NCBI GenBank assembly: GCA_031373255.1
Contig: JANMMJ010000216.1
Location: 183-64,182 of the forward strand
Source of the DNA: Hyphomicrobiales bacterium
Lineage (GTDB): Bacteria; Pseudomonadota; Alphaproteobacteria; Rhizobiales; Aestuariivirgaceae
Reading direction: 5' to 3'
Length of the DNA: 64,000 nucleotides
A program made the translations under genes and the position numbers. Shown here one piece after another: positions 13,660 through 59,973 of the stretch. The notes beneath the pieces are model-generated. The model worked only from the letters and a program-made list of their open reading frames with translations, had not been told where the DNA came from and searched no databases. How positions within the stretch are numbered: position 1 is the first letter of the stretch; each line of letters begins with the position of its first letter.

Positions 13660-15063
13660 CTAGTAGCGGTAATAATCCGGCTTGTAGGGGCCCTGCCGGG
13701 TGACGCCGATATAGGCGGCCTGGTCGTCGCGAAGGCTGGTGAGTTTCACGCCCAGCTTGCCGAGGTGCAGGCTGGCCACCTTTTCATCGAGATGCTTCGG
13801 AAGCACGTAAACTTCATTCTTGTACTTGCCGGTCCTGGCGTTGGTAAAGAGTTCGATCTGGGCCAGCGTCTGGTTGGTGAAGGACGCCGACATCACAAAG
13901 CTCGGATGTCCCGTGGCGTTGCCAAGATTGACGAGGCGGCCCTGCGACAGGAGGATCATGCGATTGCCGGCCGGGAAATGCACCAGATCGACCTGCGGCT
14001 TGATGTTGGTCCATCTGAAGTTCTTGAGGGCCGAAACCTGGATCTCATTATCGAAGTGGCCAATGTTGCAGACAATGGCCATATCCTTCATCTGGCGCAT
14101 GTGATCGACGGTTATGACATCCTTGTTGCCGGTGGCGGTGACAAAGATATCGGCGTTGCCCACGACATCCTCCAGCGTCTGCACCGAGAAGCCATCCATG
14201 GCGGCCTGCAAGGCGCAGATCGGGTCGATCTCGGTGACGACAACTCGAGCGCCCGATCCCTTGAGGGATTGGGCCGAGCCCTTGCCGACATCGCCATAGC
14301 CGCAGACGATGGCGACCTTGCCTGCCATCATGACATCGGTGCCGCGGCGGATCGCATCAACGAGCGATTCGCGGCAGCCATACTTGTTGTCGAACTTCGA
14401 TTTGGTGACGCTGTCGTTGACATTGATCGCCGGGAAGGGAAGCTCGCCCTTTTTCTGCATGTCGTAGAGACGGTGCACGCCGGTGGTGGTTTCTTCCGAA
14501 ACCCCGATGATTGAAGCCTTGACCTTGTCAAACCAGCCGGGCTGATTCTTGATGCGCTTCTTGATCTCGGCGTAGAGGCATTCCTCCTCCTCGCTGGTGG
14601 GCTTCGACACGAGACTCGGGTCCTTTTCGGCCCTGCTGCCGAGGAGGATATAAAGTGTCGCATCGCCGCCGTCGTCGAGAATCATGTTGGTTGTCTGGCC
14701 ATTTGGCCATTCAAAAATCCTGGCGGTGTATTGCCAGTATTCCTCGAGGCTCTCGCCCTTAAAGGCAAAGACCGGAATGCCAGAAGCTGCTATGGCGGCG
14801 GCGGCGTGATCCTGGGTCGAATAGATGTTGCAGGAGGCCCAGCGCACGTCGGCACCAAGGGCCGCCAGGGTCTCGATCAAAACTGCCGTCTGGATGGTCA
14901 TGTGCAGCGAGCCGGACACGCGCGCACCCTTCAACGGCTGCAGCGACTTGAATTCGGCGCGAGTGGCCATGAGTCCTGGCATTTCCACTTCCGCCATCTC
15001 GATTTCCTTGCGGCCCCAATCGGCAAGCTTGATGTCGGCGACGTGATAATCCTTGGCGGTCAT
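13660..15063 (-). CDS. ahcY: adenosylhomocysteinase
   Basis: 467 aa with an NAD-binding GYGDVGKG motif and conservation throughout with S-adenosyl-L-homocysteine hydrolase. Confidence 0.95.
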
Positions 15064-15132
15064 GGCAATCCTCGGTCCTGATGGCTGATATTCGGGGGGC
15101 TATAGCAGGGCCGGGCAGTCGAGGCAATAAGG

Positions 15133-15152
15133 ATATAAAGAAGTCTTTATAT
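15133..15152. promoter_or_regulatory. AT-rich 20-bp palindrome ATATAAAGA-AG-TCTTTATAT, ~70 nt upstream of the ahcY start; candidate operator (SahR-type methionine-cycle regulator is one possibility)
   Basis: Perfect 9-bp inverted arms read directly from the sequence. The site sits in a GC-rich context in the ahcY 5' region. Confidence 0.4.
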
Positions 15153-15181
15153 GTTCTTAGAGGGACAGGGCGCGGGGCGCG

Positions 15182-15320: not shown

Positions 15321-15932
15321 ATGGCTATAAAGCTCCATAAGGGCGATCTGCCCCCCGGCCTCGATTTCGGGTCATCGGTCGCGATCGATACCGAAACGCT
15401 GGGACTCCTGCCGCGCCGCGACAAGCTGTGCCTGGTGCAACTTTCCTCTGGCGACGGCAATGCCCAACTGGTGCAGATCGACCGCAGCACCTATGAGGCG
15501 CCGAACCTCAAGGCGCTCCTAAGCAATCCGGCAGTTACCAAGATCTTCCATTTCGCGCGTTTCGACATTGCGGTTTTGAAACACTATCTCGACGTCGATG
15601 TTAACCCGATTTACTGCACCAAACTCGCCTCCAAACTGGTGCGCACCTATACCGACCGGCATGGCCTCAAGGATCTGGTGAAAGAACTGCTCGGCATTGA
15701 GCTCAACAAGCAGCAGCAAAGTTCGGACTGGGGCGCACATGTGCTGACCGATCCGCAGAAGCAGTATGCAGCACAGGACGTGCTCTATCTGCACGAACTG
15801 AAGAGCCGTCTTGACCAGATGCTGGCGCGCGAGGGCCGCGCCGATCTCGCCATGCAATGCTTTGAATTTCTGCCGGTCAGAGCGGCACTGGACCTCGGGG
15901 GATGGACCGAGGAAGATGTCTTCGCCCACTAA
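15321..15932 (+). CDS. rnd: short ribonuclease D-like 3'-5' exonuclease (DEDDy family)
   Basis: 203 aa with exo motifs DTETLGL, YAAQDV.YL and a HELK region. It occupies the conserved position ahead of lptC-lptA-lptB. Confidence 0.8.
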   Translation: MAIKLHKGDLPPGLDFGSSVAIDTETLGLLPRRDKLCLVQLSSGDGNAQLVQIDRSTYEAPNLKALLSNPAVTKIFHFARFDIAVLKHYLDVDVNPIYCTKLASKLVRTYTDRHGLKDLVKELLGIELNKQQQSSDWGAHVLTDPQKQYAAQDVLYLHELKSRLDQMLAREGRADLAMQCFEFLPVRAALDLGGWTEEDVFAH

Positions 15933-55037: not shown

Positions 55038-55727
55038 TTATTTCGGAACTTTCAGCCATAGCGCTGCACTTCCCAGCTCGCCGACCAATAGCGCGTGCGC
55101 CTGGAGTTCGGCCTCGGTGAGGCGGGGCGGCAGGGGGCGCGGCCGTTGCCGCATGGTGCCGACGGCGATGATGGTCCTTTGCGCAGGCTGTCTTGCGGAA
55201 AGGCCAAGGGCCGCCTGACGGCCGCCGATCAATTCGAGATAGACTTCCGCCAGGAGGCTTGAGTCCAGCAGTGCTCCGTGCTTTTCGCGCTTCGAGTTGT
55301 CGATGCCATAGCGCTTGCACAGGGCGTCGAGACTGTTTGGCCCCATGGGATGCTTCTGCCGCGCCATCATCAGCGTGTCGACAACGCGCTCGGGCGGCAG
55401 CGGCGGCTGGTGCAGGAACGCCAACTCGGCATTGATGAATTTCATGTCGAAGGTGGCGTTGTGGATAACCAGTGGGGCCCCGGCGATGAATTCCATGAAC
55501 TCCGCCACAATCTTTGCAAAGACCGGCTTGTCCTTCAGAAAGGCGGATGACAGGCCATGCACCGCTTCGGCCTCGGGCGGCATGTCACGCTCCGGATTGA
55601 TATAGGCATGATAGGTTTTGCCGCTGGGAATGTGATTGATCAGTTCGACCGCGCCAATTTCCACAATGCGATGTCCGTCAGCCGGATCGAGGCCGGTGGT
55701 TTCGGTGTCGAGCACAATTTCACGCAT
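55038..55727 (-). CDS. dnaQ: DNA polymerase III subunit epsilon (3'-5' proofreading exonuclease)
   Basis: Exo motifs DTETTGL, HNATFD and the YH region. Start placed at MREIVLDTETTG. Confidence 0.9.
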   Translation of the reverse strand: MREIVLDTETTGLDPADGHRIVEIGAVELINHIPSGKTYHAYINPERDMPPEAEAVHGLSSAFLKDKPVFAKIVAEFMEFIAGAPLVIHNATFDMKFINAELAFLHQPPLPPERVVDTLMMARQKHPMGPNSLDALCKRYGIDNSKREKHGALLDSSLLAEVYLELIGGRQAALGLSARQPAQRTIIAVGTMRQRPRPLPPRLTEAELQAHALLVGELGSAALWLKVPK

Positions 55728-56328
55728 GGTTTGCAGCGGCCTTTCTGCGGAGATTTTCAACGAGGGCGCGTACTTGCCCATGCGCATAATCGATCCCCTG
55801 CGAGGTATCGATGATCACATCGGCGCGCCTTCGTTTTTCAGTATCCGGCATCTGGCGGGCAAGGATCATCTCAAGTTTTTCCACGGTCATGCCAGGACGG
55901 GCCAGGGTGCGCTGGCGCTGTATTTCCGCCGGTGCCGACACCACCACAATCACGTCGACCTCATCCTGCCTGCCAGTCTCGAAAAGAAGCGGAATATCGA
56001 GAACGGCAAGAGGCTCTCCGGCATCGCGGCATTGCTTGAGGAAGTCGCCCTGCGCCTTGCGCACAAGCGGATGAACGATGGCTTCGAGTGTCGCGAACGC
56101 CTTTGGATTTTGCGCCAACATCTCGCTCAGACACTGCCGGTCGACTGCGCCGTCTATAATGGCTGCAGGGAATGCGGCGCGGACGTCCTCGACCGCTGCG
56201 CCACCCCTCGCATAGAGACGGTCCACGCATTGATCGGCGTCAAAGACCGGAACAGCTTCTTCGCGGAACATCCTTGCTGTTTCGGATTTTCCCATGGCAA
56301 TCGAGCCGGTCAGGCCGACGGTAATCAC
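55720..56328 (-). CDS. coaE: dephospho-CoA kinase
   Basis: P-loop GLTGSIAMGKS, 202 aa. Confidence 0.9.
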   Translation of the reverse strand: MITVGLTGSIAMGKSETARMFREEAVPVFDADQCVDRLYARGGAAVEDVRAAFPAAIIDGAVDRQCLSEMLAQNPKAFATLEAIVHPLVRKAQGDFLKQCRDAGEPLAVLDIPLLFETGRQDEVDVIVVVSAPAEIQRQRTLARPGMTVEKLEMILARQMPDTEKRRRADVIIDTSQGIDYAHGQVRALVENLRRKAAANHA

Positions 56329-57164: not shown

Positions 57165-57748
57165 GACTGAAGCTTGCCTGCCTGCCGTAGAAATTCGAGA
57201 AGAGGCAGAAGCGGCAGGCCCAGGATGGTGAAGTAGTCGCCGCGAACCGCATCGAAAAGCTGCGCGCCGAGGCCTTCCAACTGGTAGGCGCCGATGGAAC
57301 GGATGGCCTCTGATCCAACCTGTTGCAGGTAGGCATCAAGGTAGGCATCGGAGAAATTGCGCATGTCGAGTTCTGCCGTCGCAACGTGGGACCAGGCAAT
57401 CGCAGCGTTTCTGGCGCAGGCGACTGCCGATACCAGCCGGTGCGTTTTGCCGCGCAATCCACGCAATTGATCACGGGCCGCAGCGATTGTTGGCGGCTTG
57501 TCGAGATGGCCGCCAAGCATTGCCAGAACCTGGTCGGCGCCAATGACGATCTCGTCAGCATCCGCAGGAGCTATCGAAAGCGCCTTGGCGCTGGCAAGCT
57601 CGAGCGCCAGTTTCTCTGGTGGCAGTGTTGCCATGCGCTTCTTGAGAACGGATTCATCAACCTGGGGTTTGGTGACTTTAATCGCAAGACCGGCGTGTTC
57701 AAGAAGCTGGCGGCGGATGCGGCTGGTTGAGGCAAGCACGAGCGTCAT
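57161..57748 (-). CDS. maf: Maf-like nucleoside triphosphate pyrophosphatase
   Basis: LVLASTSRIRRQLL N-terminus, 195 aa. Confidence 0.85.
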   Translation of the reverse strand: MTLVLASTSRIRRQLLEHAGLAIKVTKPQVDESVLKKRMATLPPEKLALELASAKALSIAPADADEIVIGADQVLAMLGGHLDKPPTIAAARDQLRGLRGKTHRLVSAVACARNAAIAWSHVATAELDMRNFSDAYLDAYLQQVGSEAIRSIGAYQLEGLGAQLFDAVRGDYFTILGLPLLPLLEFLRQAGKLQS

Positions 57749-58578
57749 ATATTGGCTCCAGAAACCTTCTGGTTGCGCTCGTTCAGCAGGTTGATGATGG
57801 CTGCGGCGGTTTCCTCGATCGAGCGCCGGGTCACATCGATGGTTGGCCAGTTGTGACGCTGACAGAGCTTTCGCATGGTCATCAGTTCGGCGGTGATTGC
57901 CTGTTGATCGACGTAAACCGTTTCGCGGCCCTCATTCAGCATCAACAGGCGATGCTTGCGGATCTGGGCAATGCGTTCGGGGGTTGCCACCAGGCCAACG
58001 ATCAGCGGATTGCCCGCTTCACTCAATTCGGGCGGTGTCTCGACGCCGGGCACGATCGGCATGTTGGCCGTCTTGATGCCGCGATTGGCTAGGTAGATGC
58101 TGGTCGGTGTTTTCGAGGTGCGGCTGATGCCGACAAGGATCACATCGGCCTTGTCGAGACCCTCGGGATGCTGGCCGTCGTCGTGGGCCATGGTGAAATT
58201 CAGTGCGTCGATGCGGCGGAAATATTCCGAGTTGAGGGCGTGCTGCCCCCCGACTTGGGGTTGGGATTCGGCATTCAGATAAGTGGCCAGGCTGGCAATC
58301 ACCGGATCAAGAATGGAAATGCAGGGGACGGAAAGTTCGCGGCATTTCTCTTCGAGCAATTTGCGCAAAGCAGTGTCTACAATGGTAAACAGGACCACAC
58401 CGGGCTGGCGTTCGATTTCGGCGGTCACCCGCTGCAATTGCTTGGGGGTGCGCACCAGCGCATAGATGTGTTCGATGGGCTGGTATTGGGCATAATGTGC
58501 TGTTGCTGCCCTGGCGACGGTGTTGAGCGTTTCACCGGTTGCGTCCGAGATCAGATGCATGTGAAAATAGCGGGACAC
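57745..58578 (-). CDS. DUF299 kinase/pyrophosphorylase (PEP synthetase / pyruvate phosphate dikinase regulatory protein-like, RP001 homolog)
   Basis: P-loop-like GISRTSKTPTS and the HLISDATGETL motif. The track start is GTG at 58578; an ATG at 58560 gives MHLISDATG. Confidence 0.8.
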   Translation of the reverse strand: MSRYFHMHLISDATGETLNTVARAATAHYAQYQPIEHIYALVRTPKQLQRVTAEIERQPGVVLFTIVDTALRKLLEEKCRELSVPCISILDPVIASLATYLNAESQPQVGGQHALNSEYFRRIDALNFTMAHDDGQHPEGLDKADVILVGISRTSKTPTSIYLANRGIKTANMPIVPGVETPPELSEAGNPLIVGLVATPERIAQIRKHRLLMLNEGRETVYVDQQAITAELMTMRKLCQRHNWPTIDVTRRSIEETAAAIINLLNERNQKVSGANI

Positions 58579-58706
58579 GGGTTTTCCGGTGAAGCCTGAA
58601 TGAAATGTGGAAAAGTGCTGGTTCTATGATGGCGTGCAAAAGTTCTTAACCCTTTTGCAGTCCGATTATCTACAGATTTTCGCCAGCACTATCCAGGCTG
58701 TGAAGT

Positions 58707-58715
58707 GTGTGGATA
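58707..58715 (-). promoter_or_regulatory. DnaA box, perfect match (TTATCCACA on minus strand)
   Basis: TGTGGATAA read on the plus strand. Confidence 0.6.
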
Positions 58716-58861
58716 ATTTCAGGGGAGTGGAGAACATCGGGCAAGCTGTGGATTATTTGCGCTGAGCTTTCGTATCCCGCTGCTTGCATTGGTTTTTTGG
58801 AGAAGGGATAATTGTCACGCTTATTCCAAGACTGTGGGATGTCAGGAAAATTGTTTACTAG

Positions 58862-58877
58862 TTAATGAAATCTTAAC
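58862..58877 (+). promoter_or_regulatory. CtrA-type full binding site TTAATGAAATCTTAAC (TTAA-N7-TTAAC)
   Basis: Exact match to the CtrA consensus spacing, ~70 nt upstream of hemE. Confidence 0.5.
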
Positions 58878-58944
58878 AATCCTTGTTTTCCAGCCTCCAT
58901 AATAAGAGTCAGAGTCTATATATCCCTTCTTTGATTGGTATCCC

Positions 58945-59973
58945 ATGAAATCCCTTCTGGCGGTTCTTAACGGTGAAAAGCCTTCGCGGCGGCCGGTGTG
59001 GTTCATGAGGCAGGCTGGCCGTTATCTCCCCGAATATCGCGCGGTCAGGGACAGGAAGGGGGGATTTCTCGATCTTTGCTATGACCCGCAAGCCGCGGCC
59101 GAGGTGACGCTACAACCGTTGCGGCGTTTCGATCTCGATGCGGCAATTGTGTTTGCCGATATTCTCGTTGTGCCGCACGCCATGGGGGTGGAACTGGCCT
59201 TTGCAGTTGGAGAAGGCCCGGTGCTGGGCGTGGTCCGGGATCTTTCCCGGGTGAGAGCCCTGAAATCCATCGCGGTAACGCAGCAGGTTGAGCAGGTTTG
59301 CGATACGCTTCGCCTGGTGAAGGCCGACCTTGACCACGATGTGGCGCTTATCGGCTTCTGTGGTGCGCCCTGGACCGTGGCAAGCTACATGATCGAAGGG
59401 GGATCCTCGGATGAACGGCTTCTGTCGCGGAAGGCCGCGGCGGAACAGCCGGACTGGTTTTCCGCGCTCATCGCCCGGCTGATCGACGAATCGGTTGATT
59501 ATCTCGTGGCTCAGGCAAAAGCTGGAGCCGAGGTTGTGCAGATTTTCGATTCATGGGCGGGGGACTTGCCATGGGACCTGCAGGAAACGTGGGTGCAGAA
59601 GCCGTTGCAGCAGCTGGCGGAGCGTTTCCGGGCACGGTGTCCGGGTGTTCCGGTTATCGTTTTTGCGAGGGGCGCTGGGGCTGGACACCTGGCAATCGCG
59701 CGGAAGGTCAGGCCAAATGCTGTCAGTGTCGAAGCCGGGTTGCCGCTGGACTGGGCGCGGGAAAACCTGCTCGAACATGTTGTGGTTCAGGGTAATCTTG
59801 ATCCGGTTGTGCTTGCCTCAGGGGGAGTGCAGATGAAAGCAAGTGTTACACGGATTCTCCGGGACTTGCCGATGGAACGGCATATTTTCAACCTTGGCCA
59901 TGGCATCAGGCAGGAGACGCCGCCAGACCACTTGGCGGAGGTGGTGCGGTTGATCAGGGCAAATGATGGCTGA
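58945..59973 (+). CDS. hemE: uroporphyrinogen decarboxylase
   Basis: N-terminus PVWFMRQAGRYLPEY and 342 aa. Confidence 0.95.
   Translation: MKSLLAVLNGEKPSRRPVWFMRQAGRYLPEYRAVRDRKGGFLDLCYDPQAAAEVTLQPLRRFDLDAAIVFADILVVPHAMGVELAFAVGEGPVLGVVRDLSRVRALKSIAVTQQVEQVCDTLRLVKADLDHDVALIGFCGAPWTVASYMIEGGSSDERLLSRKAAAEQPDWFSALIARLIDESVDYLVAQAKAGAEVVQIFDSWAGDLPWDLQETWVQKPLQQLAERFRARCPGVPVIVFARGAGAGHLAIARKVRPNAVSVEAGLPLDWARENLLEHVVVQGNLDPVVLASGGVQMKASVTRILRDLPMERHIFNLGHGIRQETPPDHLAEVVRLIRANDG

Follow-up and report, generated by a model that had tools for sequence, protein, structure and literature searches.

[quoted passage not shown] A sequence-only reading had placed oriC in this gap, and this core claim is well supported by our analysis through synteny, a non-random cluster of DnaA boxes, phylogenetic footprinting, and an easily melted AT-rich element. 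Based on these lines of evidence, we consider it likely that an uncultured alphaproteobacterium, with Hyphomicrobiales as its nearest named relatives, has its oriC in this gap, and that this origin is of the Caulobacter Cori type. As such, the locus is very probably an ordinary further example of a well-known type of origin. The candidate region and the neighboring genes that define its location are the following:

58561 to 58944, no strand: non-coding gap between the DUF299/PpsR-like gene and hemE, candidate origin region (from the list of open reading frames and the Pfam and NCBIfam assignments of its flanks)
57745 to 58560, minus strand: DUF299 gene, left boundary, pyruvate phosphate dikinase/PEP synthase regulator family (Pfam PF03618, 4.4e-92)
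58945 to 59973, plus strand: hemE, uroporphyrinogen decarboxylase, right boundary (Pfam PF01208, 4.7e-107)
59963 to 60394, plus strand: hemJ (TIGR00701, HemJ)
60589 to 61869, plus strand: rho (Rho domains in Pfam)
55038 to 55787, minus strand: dnaQ

The divergence of gene orientation at the gap, which had been described in the sequence-only reading, was confirmed together with the identities and strands of the flanking genes by Pfam and NCBIfam, with dnaQ-coaE-aroE-maf-DUF299 on the minus strand to the left and hemE-hemJ-rho on the plus strand to the right, the latter being followed by a minus-strand gene for a DUF255 thioredoxin-domain protein (61866–63896). The DUF299 protein scores 340 bits against NCBIfam NF003742 (cut-off 225), and its gene is the homolog of Caulobacter CC0001 and Rickettsia RP001. 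While the gap is 366 nt long, as first described, if this gene starts at the GTG at 58578, the ATG at 58560 is the more likely start codon, since the Pfam match begins at residue 8 and the corresponding ATG is the annotated start in relatives; the probable length of the gap is therefore 384 nt. To the left of the gap, 62% of the coding bases are on the minus strand and thus co-directional with replication forks leaving the gap, which is mildly supportive of an origin at this position. The remaining window encodes ordinary chromosomal housekeeping functions (addAB, tsaE, ahcY, lptCAB-rpoN-hpf-ptsN, hrcA-grpE, rph, and gshB) as well as nucleoside and betaine transporters, and no dnaA, ctrA, or ccrM gene was found within the 64 kb. 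The G+C content of the window is approximately 60%, with a stretch from 43000 to 48000 at 0.55–0.57 that may be horizontally acquired; it encodes OpuAC-type betaine-binding proteins alongside two TetR regulators of the BetI type, with which they are paired, and a 486-aa protein (43610–45070, minus strand) that matches a YopT-type cysteine protease domain below threshold.

For a comparison across lineages, the same locus was recovered from 9 further lineages, resulting in a total of 10 including the window (L082, L086, L090, L093, L095, L097, L098, L099, and L221, with L095 and L099 being two Nordella-type lineages). A HemE-based scan of genome contigs was dominated by a generic peptide pattern, and the relatives listed there showed 36%–49% identity; close relatives were reached by a search for homologous proteins, followed by retrieval of the contigs encoding them. 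A further scan of metagenomes with the pattern TGTGGANAA-N48-54-TTATCTACAG resulted in matches that were rejected as chance (0 of 99 loci checked encode HemE or DUF299). The closest HemE relatives are at most 71% identical to the HemE of the window, and the best named matches (Nordella, Taklimakanibacter, Methylocella, and Parvibaculaceae) range from 56% to 59%, with Nordella at 59%. The source lineage itself is represented in metagenome assemblies only. Except for L098, the gene order was equal across all relatives with enough flanking sequence, and 8 related loci share the neighborhood of the boundary genes. Furthermore, in relatives with long enough contigs, mnmE-mnmG-rsmG-parA-parB follow downstream within 10 kb, which is the classic neighborhood of alphaproteobacterial origins. 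The location of the gap, bounded by hemE and DUF299/COG1806 and embedded in a neighborhood that runs from dnaQ via rho to parAB, hence corresponds to that of an origin. L098 lacks the DUF299 gene, so that maf abuts hemE, and its gap of 305 nt (L098 2696–3000) contains one perfect DnaA box and a TTAA-N7-TTAA motif 25 nt before hemE.

Within the gap, a pattern search identified four predicted DnaA boxes:

58606 to 58614, minus strand: DnaA box 1, one mismatch, TTTTCCACA on the minus strand (TGTGGAAAA in plus-strand reading)
58666 to 58674, plus strand: DnaA box 2, one mismatch, TTATCTACA, oriented opposite to boxes 1, 3, and 4
58708 to 58716, minus strand: DnaA box 3, perfect, TTATCCACA on the minus strand (TGTGGATAA in plus-strand reading)
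58747 to 58755, minus strand: DnaA box 4, one mismatch, TAATCCACA on the minus strand (TGTGGATTA in plus-strand reading)

The sequence-only reading had listed three of these. Its coordinates for the one-mismatch boxes TTATCTACA (58666–58674) and TGTGGATTA (58747–58755) are correct, the perfect box TGTGGATAA is present as well but was placed one base off (58707–58715 instead of 58708–58716), and TGTGGAAAA at 58606–58614 was absent from its list. The whole window contains 11 boxes with at most one mismatch compared to 5.25 expected, 4 of which fall within the 150 nt from 58606 to 58755. In 20,000 shuffled sequences with the composition of the gap, the number of boxes averaged 0.10 and never reached four. 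No second cluster of DnaA boxes was found in the 64-kb window or in the 21-kb loci of relatives; the cluster in this gap is above chance and unique within 64 kb. The only other perfect TTATCCACA in the window (55460–55468, minus strand) was rejected as a regulatory box: the string is a coding coincidence that stems from the ExoII motif LVIHNATFD of DnaQ, and the corresponding position in relatives reads TCATCCACA. Beyond the four boxes, we noted a direct repeat, GGATAATTGT (58806–58815) and GGAAAATTGT (58845–58854), with copies 39 nt apart, a spacing equal to that of boxes 3 and 4. The copies, which showed no conservation in the relatives, might serve as weak DnaA sites of the W-box kind between the strong boxes and the AT-rich element, bridging the two.

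The strongest evidence that the boxes are functional comes from a scan for conservation that was blind to motifs. Outside of the motifs, the gaps of the relatives are barely alignable (mean pairwise identity 0.37), with the lineages compared by footprinting sharing 59%–71% HemE identity. When all 9-nt blocks of the gap were ranked by conservation, box 2 nevertheless came first (0.93), box 1 second (0.87), and box 3 fifth (0.70), while the other top-ranked blocks correspond to a pair of GANTC sites and the hemE leader. It is this ranking that leads us to regard the boxes as probably functional. Their positions relative to the hemE ATG are likewise fixed: box 1 is found at -337 to -342 on the minus strand in 6 lineages; box 2 at -278 to -283 on the plus strand, with the same sequence in 5 lineages and TAATCCACA in the two Nordella-type lineages; and box 3 at -236 to -241 on the minus strand in 5 lineages, with an interval of 33 nt between boxes 2 and 3 in each of them. 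This geometry of boxes 1–3 is common to the window, L082, L090, L095, and L099, and L093 has boxes 1 and 2. Box 4 is less conserved than the others (identity 0.58), with its CTGTGGA core kept in L082, L093, L095, L099, and L221. For the IHF site WATCAANNNNTTR, no exact match was found in the gap of the window or of any relative, only strings with one mismatch. IHF sites are degenerate, and, to our knowledge, they are not universal among alphaproteobacterial origins. Furthermore, an Rfam scan of the gap returned no family match.

The gap is markedly richer in AT than its surroundings (57% compared to approximately 40% for the window, corresponding to a G+C content of 43%, 17 points lower) and includes a discrete, easily melted element:

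58846 to 58885, no strand: 40-bp duplex with the lowest stability in the gap, best candidate for the DNA unwinding element

With a nearest-neighbor free energy of -43.6 kcal/mol, compared to a window mean of -60.0 (sd 3.6), and an AT content of 75%–78%, this element has the second lowest stability among all 40-mers in the 64 kb. The sequence-only reading had assigned the unwinding tract to the GANTC pair next to hemE; the least stable duplex, however, lies around the CtrA site, and the GANTC pair follows approximately 20 nt downstream of it. The least stable 40-mer of the entire window (15126–15165) is located in another divergent gap, between ahcY (13660–15063, minus strand) and a gene for an RNase D-like 3'-5' exonuclease (15321–15932, plus strand), and no DnaA boxes were found in that region.

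Two matches to the CtrA recognition motif were considered:

58861 to 58877, no strand: full CtrA-type site GTTAATGAAATCTTAAC, GTTAA-N7-TTAAC, full on both strands, located inside the putative unwinding element
58646 to 58650, plus strand: TTAAC half-site of doubtful significance

The CtrA site TTAATGAAATCTTAAC that had been reported at 58862–58877 is indeed present, and inclusion of position 58861 renders it a full site on both strands. It represents the sole TTAA-N7-TTAAC match in the 64 kb (0.05 expected), and one full site occurred in 1.3% of the shuffles with gap composition. By motif, the gap thus holds one perfect predicted CtrA site compared to five in Caulobacter. The half-site exists as well, although one base away from its reported position (58646–58650 rather than 58645–58649); TTAAC itself was found in the window only, its surrounding GTTCTTA is semi-conserved, and the equivalent position in L082 is the end of a full TTAA-N7-TTAA.

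Across the 10 lineages, a perfect TTAA-N7-TTAA was found in the gap of 7, four at the same place and three elsewhere. At position -83 relative to hemE, the window, L093, and L221 have a perfect site and L090 has a site with one mismatch, while perfect sites elsewhere in the gap are found in L082, L090, L097, and L098 at -309, -254, -172, and -25. No CtrA-type site was found in the hemE-upstream gap of the remaining 3, L086 and the two Nordella-type loci. In the latter (L095, ~19856; L099, ~19846), the only TTAA-N7-TTAA in 21 kb falls between parA and parB. For the 6 lineages that were shuffle-tested, the motif in the gap is unique in 4–64 kb of sequence, and the probability of finding it by chance does not exceed 0.033 in a single gap and is approximately 1e-7 for 6 of 9 lineages, with the sites at -83 sharing ancestry. 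As the full site recurs in this gap alone despite its moved position, selection would act on CtrA binding within the origin rather than at one promoter, which suggests that one CtrA site is selected for somewhere in the origin, with positional turnover.

Adjacent to the predicted CtrA site, a further conserved block precedes hemE:

58898 to 58916, plus strand: hemE-proximal block with a -10-like CATAAT (58898–58903), followed by tandem CcrM-type sites GAGTCAGAGTC (58906–58916)

The two adjacent GANTC sites GAGTCAGAGTC at 58906–58916 are as described in the sequence-only reading. The pair is kept in L082, L086, L093, and L221, only the second GANTC is kept in L095 and L099, and the identity of the block is 0.73. 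It probably represents the promoter and transcription start region of hemE, with TTAACA (58873–58878) as a possible -35 element that overlaps the 3' half of the CtrA site and is separated by a 19-nt spacer from CATAAT. A consensus sigma-70 scan of the gap revealed no convincing promoter, the 19-nt spacer lying outside the range of the scan. Furthermore, neither a terminator nor a conserved RNA-like block was found in the gap, and the presumed 5' leader of hemE showed no unusual fold (z = 0.41). While two GANTC in 366 nt are not unusual as a count, the motif is depleted about twofold in the whole window (140 compared to 306 expected from dinucleotide-preserving shuffles). Such a depletion is typical of CcrM-encoding alphaproteobacteria (PMC3973325), and it fits with this genome encoding a methyltransferase of the CcrM type.

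Strand composition, in comparison, leans slightly against an origin at the gap. GC skew had been proposed as a check for this origin, and within the 64-kb window this check does not favor it, as there is no sign reversal of the skew at the gap: plus-strand values range from approximately 0 to +0.05 on the left and from +0.1 to +0.17 from 57 kb onward, with only 5 kb on the right. When transcription-strand and replication-strand effects were separated at third codon positions (GC3), the plus-strand component for the left 58 kb was r = +0.034 (95% bootstrap interval 0.009–0.059), whereas a negative value is expected for an origin at the gap. Within the window, neither KOPS-like GGGNAGGG nor skewed k-mers, which were searched for agnostically, reached counts high enough to orient the replichore. 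However, local skews are gene-specific, and the strong positive skew on the right rests on four genes whose skews are conserved across relatives: in the window, L082, L086, L095, and L099, the sense-strand GC3 skew is +0.19 to +0.38 for hemE and hemJ, and -0.3 to -0.57 for the DUF255 gene. Conserved gene-specific GC3 skew therefore mimics replication skew over a few kb. Moreover, loci of Caulobacterales, analyzed with 4-kb flanks, do not show a skew switch either, although their origin is at hemE, and at least one Hyphomicrobiales genome is without a clear skew inversion (PMC3794950). Given the gene-specific skews of the flanks, the Caulobacterales controls, and this published genome, we do not take the missing switch as a refutation.

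These observations also bear on other explanations for the gap. That the cluster of motifs is a chance product of AT-rich intergenic DNA might be argued from the fact that one-mismatch 9-mers are common and that TTAA-type strings are favored in AT-rich DNA. However, with 0 of the 20,000 composition-matched shuffles reaching four boxes, a full CtrA site in just 1.3% of them, and the boxes being the best conserved blocks of an otherwise divergent alignment, this explanation is effectively refuted by shuffles and conservation scan, and we attach next to no credence to it. Another explanation is that the gap is a divergent promoter region and the relic of an ancestral origin, where DnaA would regulate transcription or be titrated, while the active origin would be found at a different chromosomal position, further left or outside the window. 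Promoters for both hemE and the DUF299 operon certainly lie in the gap, the plus-strand G excess runs across it, the GC3 component of the left 58 kb is slightly positive, and DnaA also serves as a transcription factor in alphaproteobacteria (PMC8203912). Nonetheless, a set of four boxes with conserved order, orientation, and spacing, and with an AT-rich melting element next to it, would typically be found at an origin and not at a promoter, and no other box cluster exists in the 64 kb. Furthermore, parAB are encoded approximately 9 kb away in relatives, and alphaproteobacterial centromeres adjoin the origin. As for the skews, they are gene-specific and equally uninformative in Caulobacterales, for which the origin at hemE is experimentally established, and some Hyphomicrobiales genomes lack a skew inversion (PMC3794950). 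Taken together, we regard a relic with an active origin elsewhere as improbable.

A closer competitor accepts the gap as the origin but considers the CtrA-type site as merely transcriptional, serving the hemE promoter or a CcnA-like small RNA, with CtrA control of replication being indirect or absent as in Sinorhizobium meliloti. The site is single, and its 3' half lies over the possible -35 TTAACA with CATAAT 19 nt downstream, an arrangement resembling that of most CtrA-activated promoters, which have one site at -35 (PMC11264516). It is also missing in 3 of 10 lineages and displaced in 3 more, the origin of S. meliloti is devoid of CtrA motifs and CtrA binding (PMC4433202), and a CtrA box in Caulobacter Cori drives the CcnA RNA (PMC8959179). 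On the other hand, the site is located exactly within the least stable duplex, the expected melting point; a full site recurs in the gap alone (within flanks of 4–64 kb), even at -309, -254, and -172, far from the hemE promoter; and neither a terminator nor a conserved RNA-like block was found. We regard a purely transcriptional role of the site as less likely than not.

Returning to the gap as a Cori-type origin, a mechanism can be proposed by analogy to E. coli oriC and Caulobacter Cori. DnaA-ATP would bind the four near-consensus 9-mer boxes at 58606–58755, oligomerize toward hemE, and melt the AT-rich element at 58846–58885, where the helicase would be loaded and from where two forks would depart in opposite directions, matched by the divergent orientation of the flanking genes. 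Phosphorylated CtrA could block opening of the element and/or transcription from the hemE promoter, as it does at Caulobacter Cori, and the onset of replication would at once leave the two adjacent GANTC sites at the presumed hemE start hemimethylated.

Whether CtrA would indeed gate initiation is a separate matter. The sequence-only reading had concluded from the presence of both DnaA and CtrA sites that initiation is gated as in Caulobacter, Sinorhizobium, and Brucella. This goes too far, as the Sinorhizobium precedent is contradicted (Pini et al.) and one predicted CtrA site does not imply gating; 3 of 10 related lineages lack it. Judging from the motifs, CtrA gating of initiation at this gap is plausible but unproven. 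More specifically, we tentatively propose, while considering it rather doubtful, that direct CtrA control is maintained by a single high-quality site in or near the origin that is under selection while its position turns over (-83, -309, -254, -172, and -25). If true, the history of direct CtrA control of initiation in Hyphomicrobiales-like bacteria would be one of repeated gain, relocation, and loss, and this control would here be paired with strong E. coli-type DnaA boxes, unlike the weak ones of Caulobacter, which are thought to render its origin CtrA-sensitive. This bears on how widely the Caulobacter-style direct repression of the origin by CtrA applies outside the Caulobacterales. The comparative result of fixed box positions and a single mobile CtrA site is the only aspect that goes beyond routine annotation. 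Apart from this, the analysis provides a precise origin annotation for an uncultured alphaproteobacterial lineage seen in metagenome contigs only, which is of use for genome orientation, for peak-to-trough estimates of replication rates from metagenomes, and for building replicating vectors.

The features by which hemE-linked alphaproteobacterial origins have been recognized in silico are the boundary genes, a box cluster, AT richness, and a CtrA site (PMC1914354), all of which are found at the locus in the window. The origins of Caulobacter and Rickettsia are located between hemE and the DUF299/COG1806 gene (PMC1914354; PMC6393856). Caulobacter crescentus Cori (Marczynski and Shapiro; PMC6393856) shares with the window this location and the divergent flanking operons, as well as DnaA boxes, an AT-rich hemE side, the CtrA motif TTAA-N7-TTAAC, GANTC sites, and a hemE promoter in or near the origin. 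The two differ in their DnaA boxes, which in Cori comprise two moderate G-boxes (TGATCCACA-like) and five weak W-boxes but in the window are four in number, of the E. coli type, and close to consensus. They also differ in the number of CtrA sites (five in Cori, one in the window), and while Cori contains an IHF site and the CcnA RNA gene, neither an IHF consensus nor a conserved RNA-like block was found in the window. The hemE promoter predicted for the window resembles the strong internal hemE promoter of Cori, which is repressed by CtrA (PMC6393856; PMC8959179). The predicted origins of Rickettsia prowazekii and other Rickettsiales (Brassinga et al. 2002; Ioannidis et al. 2007, PMC1914354) are similar to the window in their hemE/COG1806 pair, a gap of approximately 380–400 bp, the combination of DnaA and CtrA sites, and an AT content above that of the genome, but their genomes are AT-rich, and the predictions for them include an IHF site along with several CtrA sites, compared to one CtrA site at approximately 60% G+C in the window.

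By HemE, the closest named relatives of the window are Hyphomicrobiales/Rhizobiales, and Nordella-type loci share boxes 1–3 at equal distances. The oriC of Sinorhizobium meliloti is said to lie near hemE, a placement attributed to Sibley and colleagues in 2006. Together with Brucella abortus oriI, likewise near hemE (PMC4104442), it resembles the window in its hemE-proximal position and strong DnaA boxes. The S. meliloti origin, however, exhibits neither CtrA motifs nor a CtrA ChIP signal (PMC4433202), in contrast to the full CtrA site in the AT-rich element of the window and its four closest lineages. In this respect, the window is more reminiscent of Hyphomonas neptunium, a member of a different order that we liken by description, in which ChIP-seq located CtrA at a single place beside the chromosomal origin (PMC7200025), while for the window the single site is predicted by motif. 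Among the loci compared upstream of hemE, those of Caulobacterales have 0–3 perfect CtrA sites and few strong boxes; those of Parvibaculum, Sphingomonas, and another Hyphomicrobiales metagenome-assembled genome have strong boxes and no CtrA site; and Parvularculaceae have both strong boxes and CtrA sites. Judged by these motifs, the predicted origin of the window belongs to a mixed class that combines strong DnaA boxes with a CtrA site.
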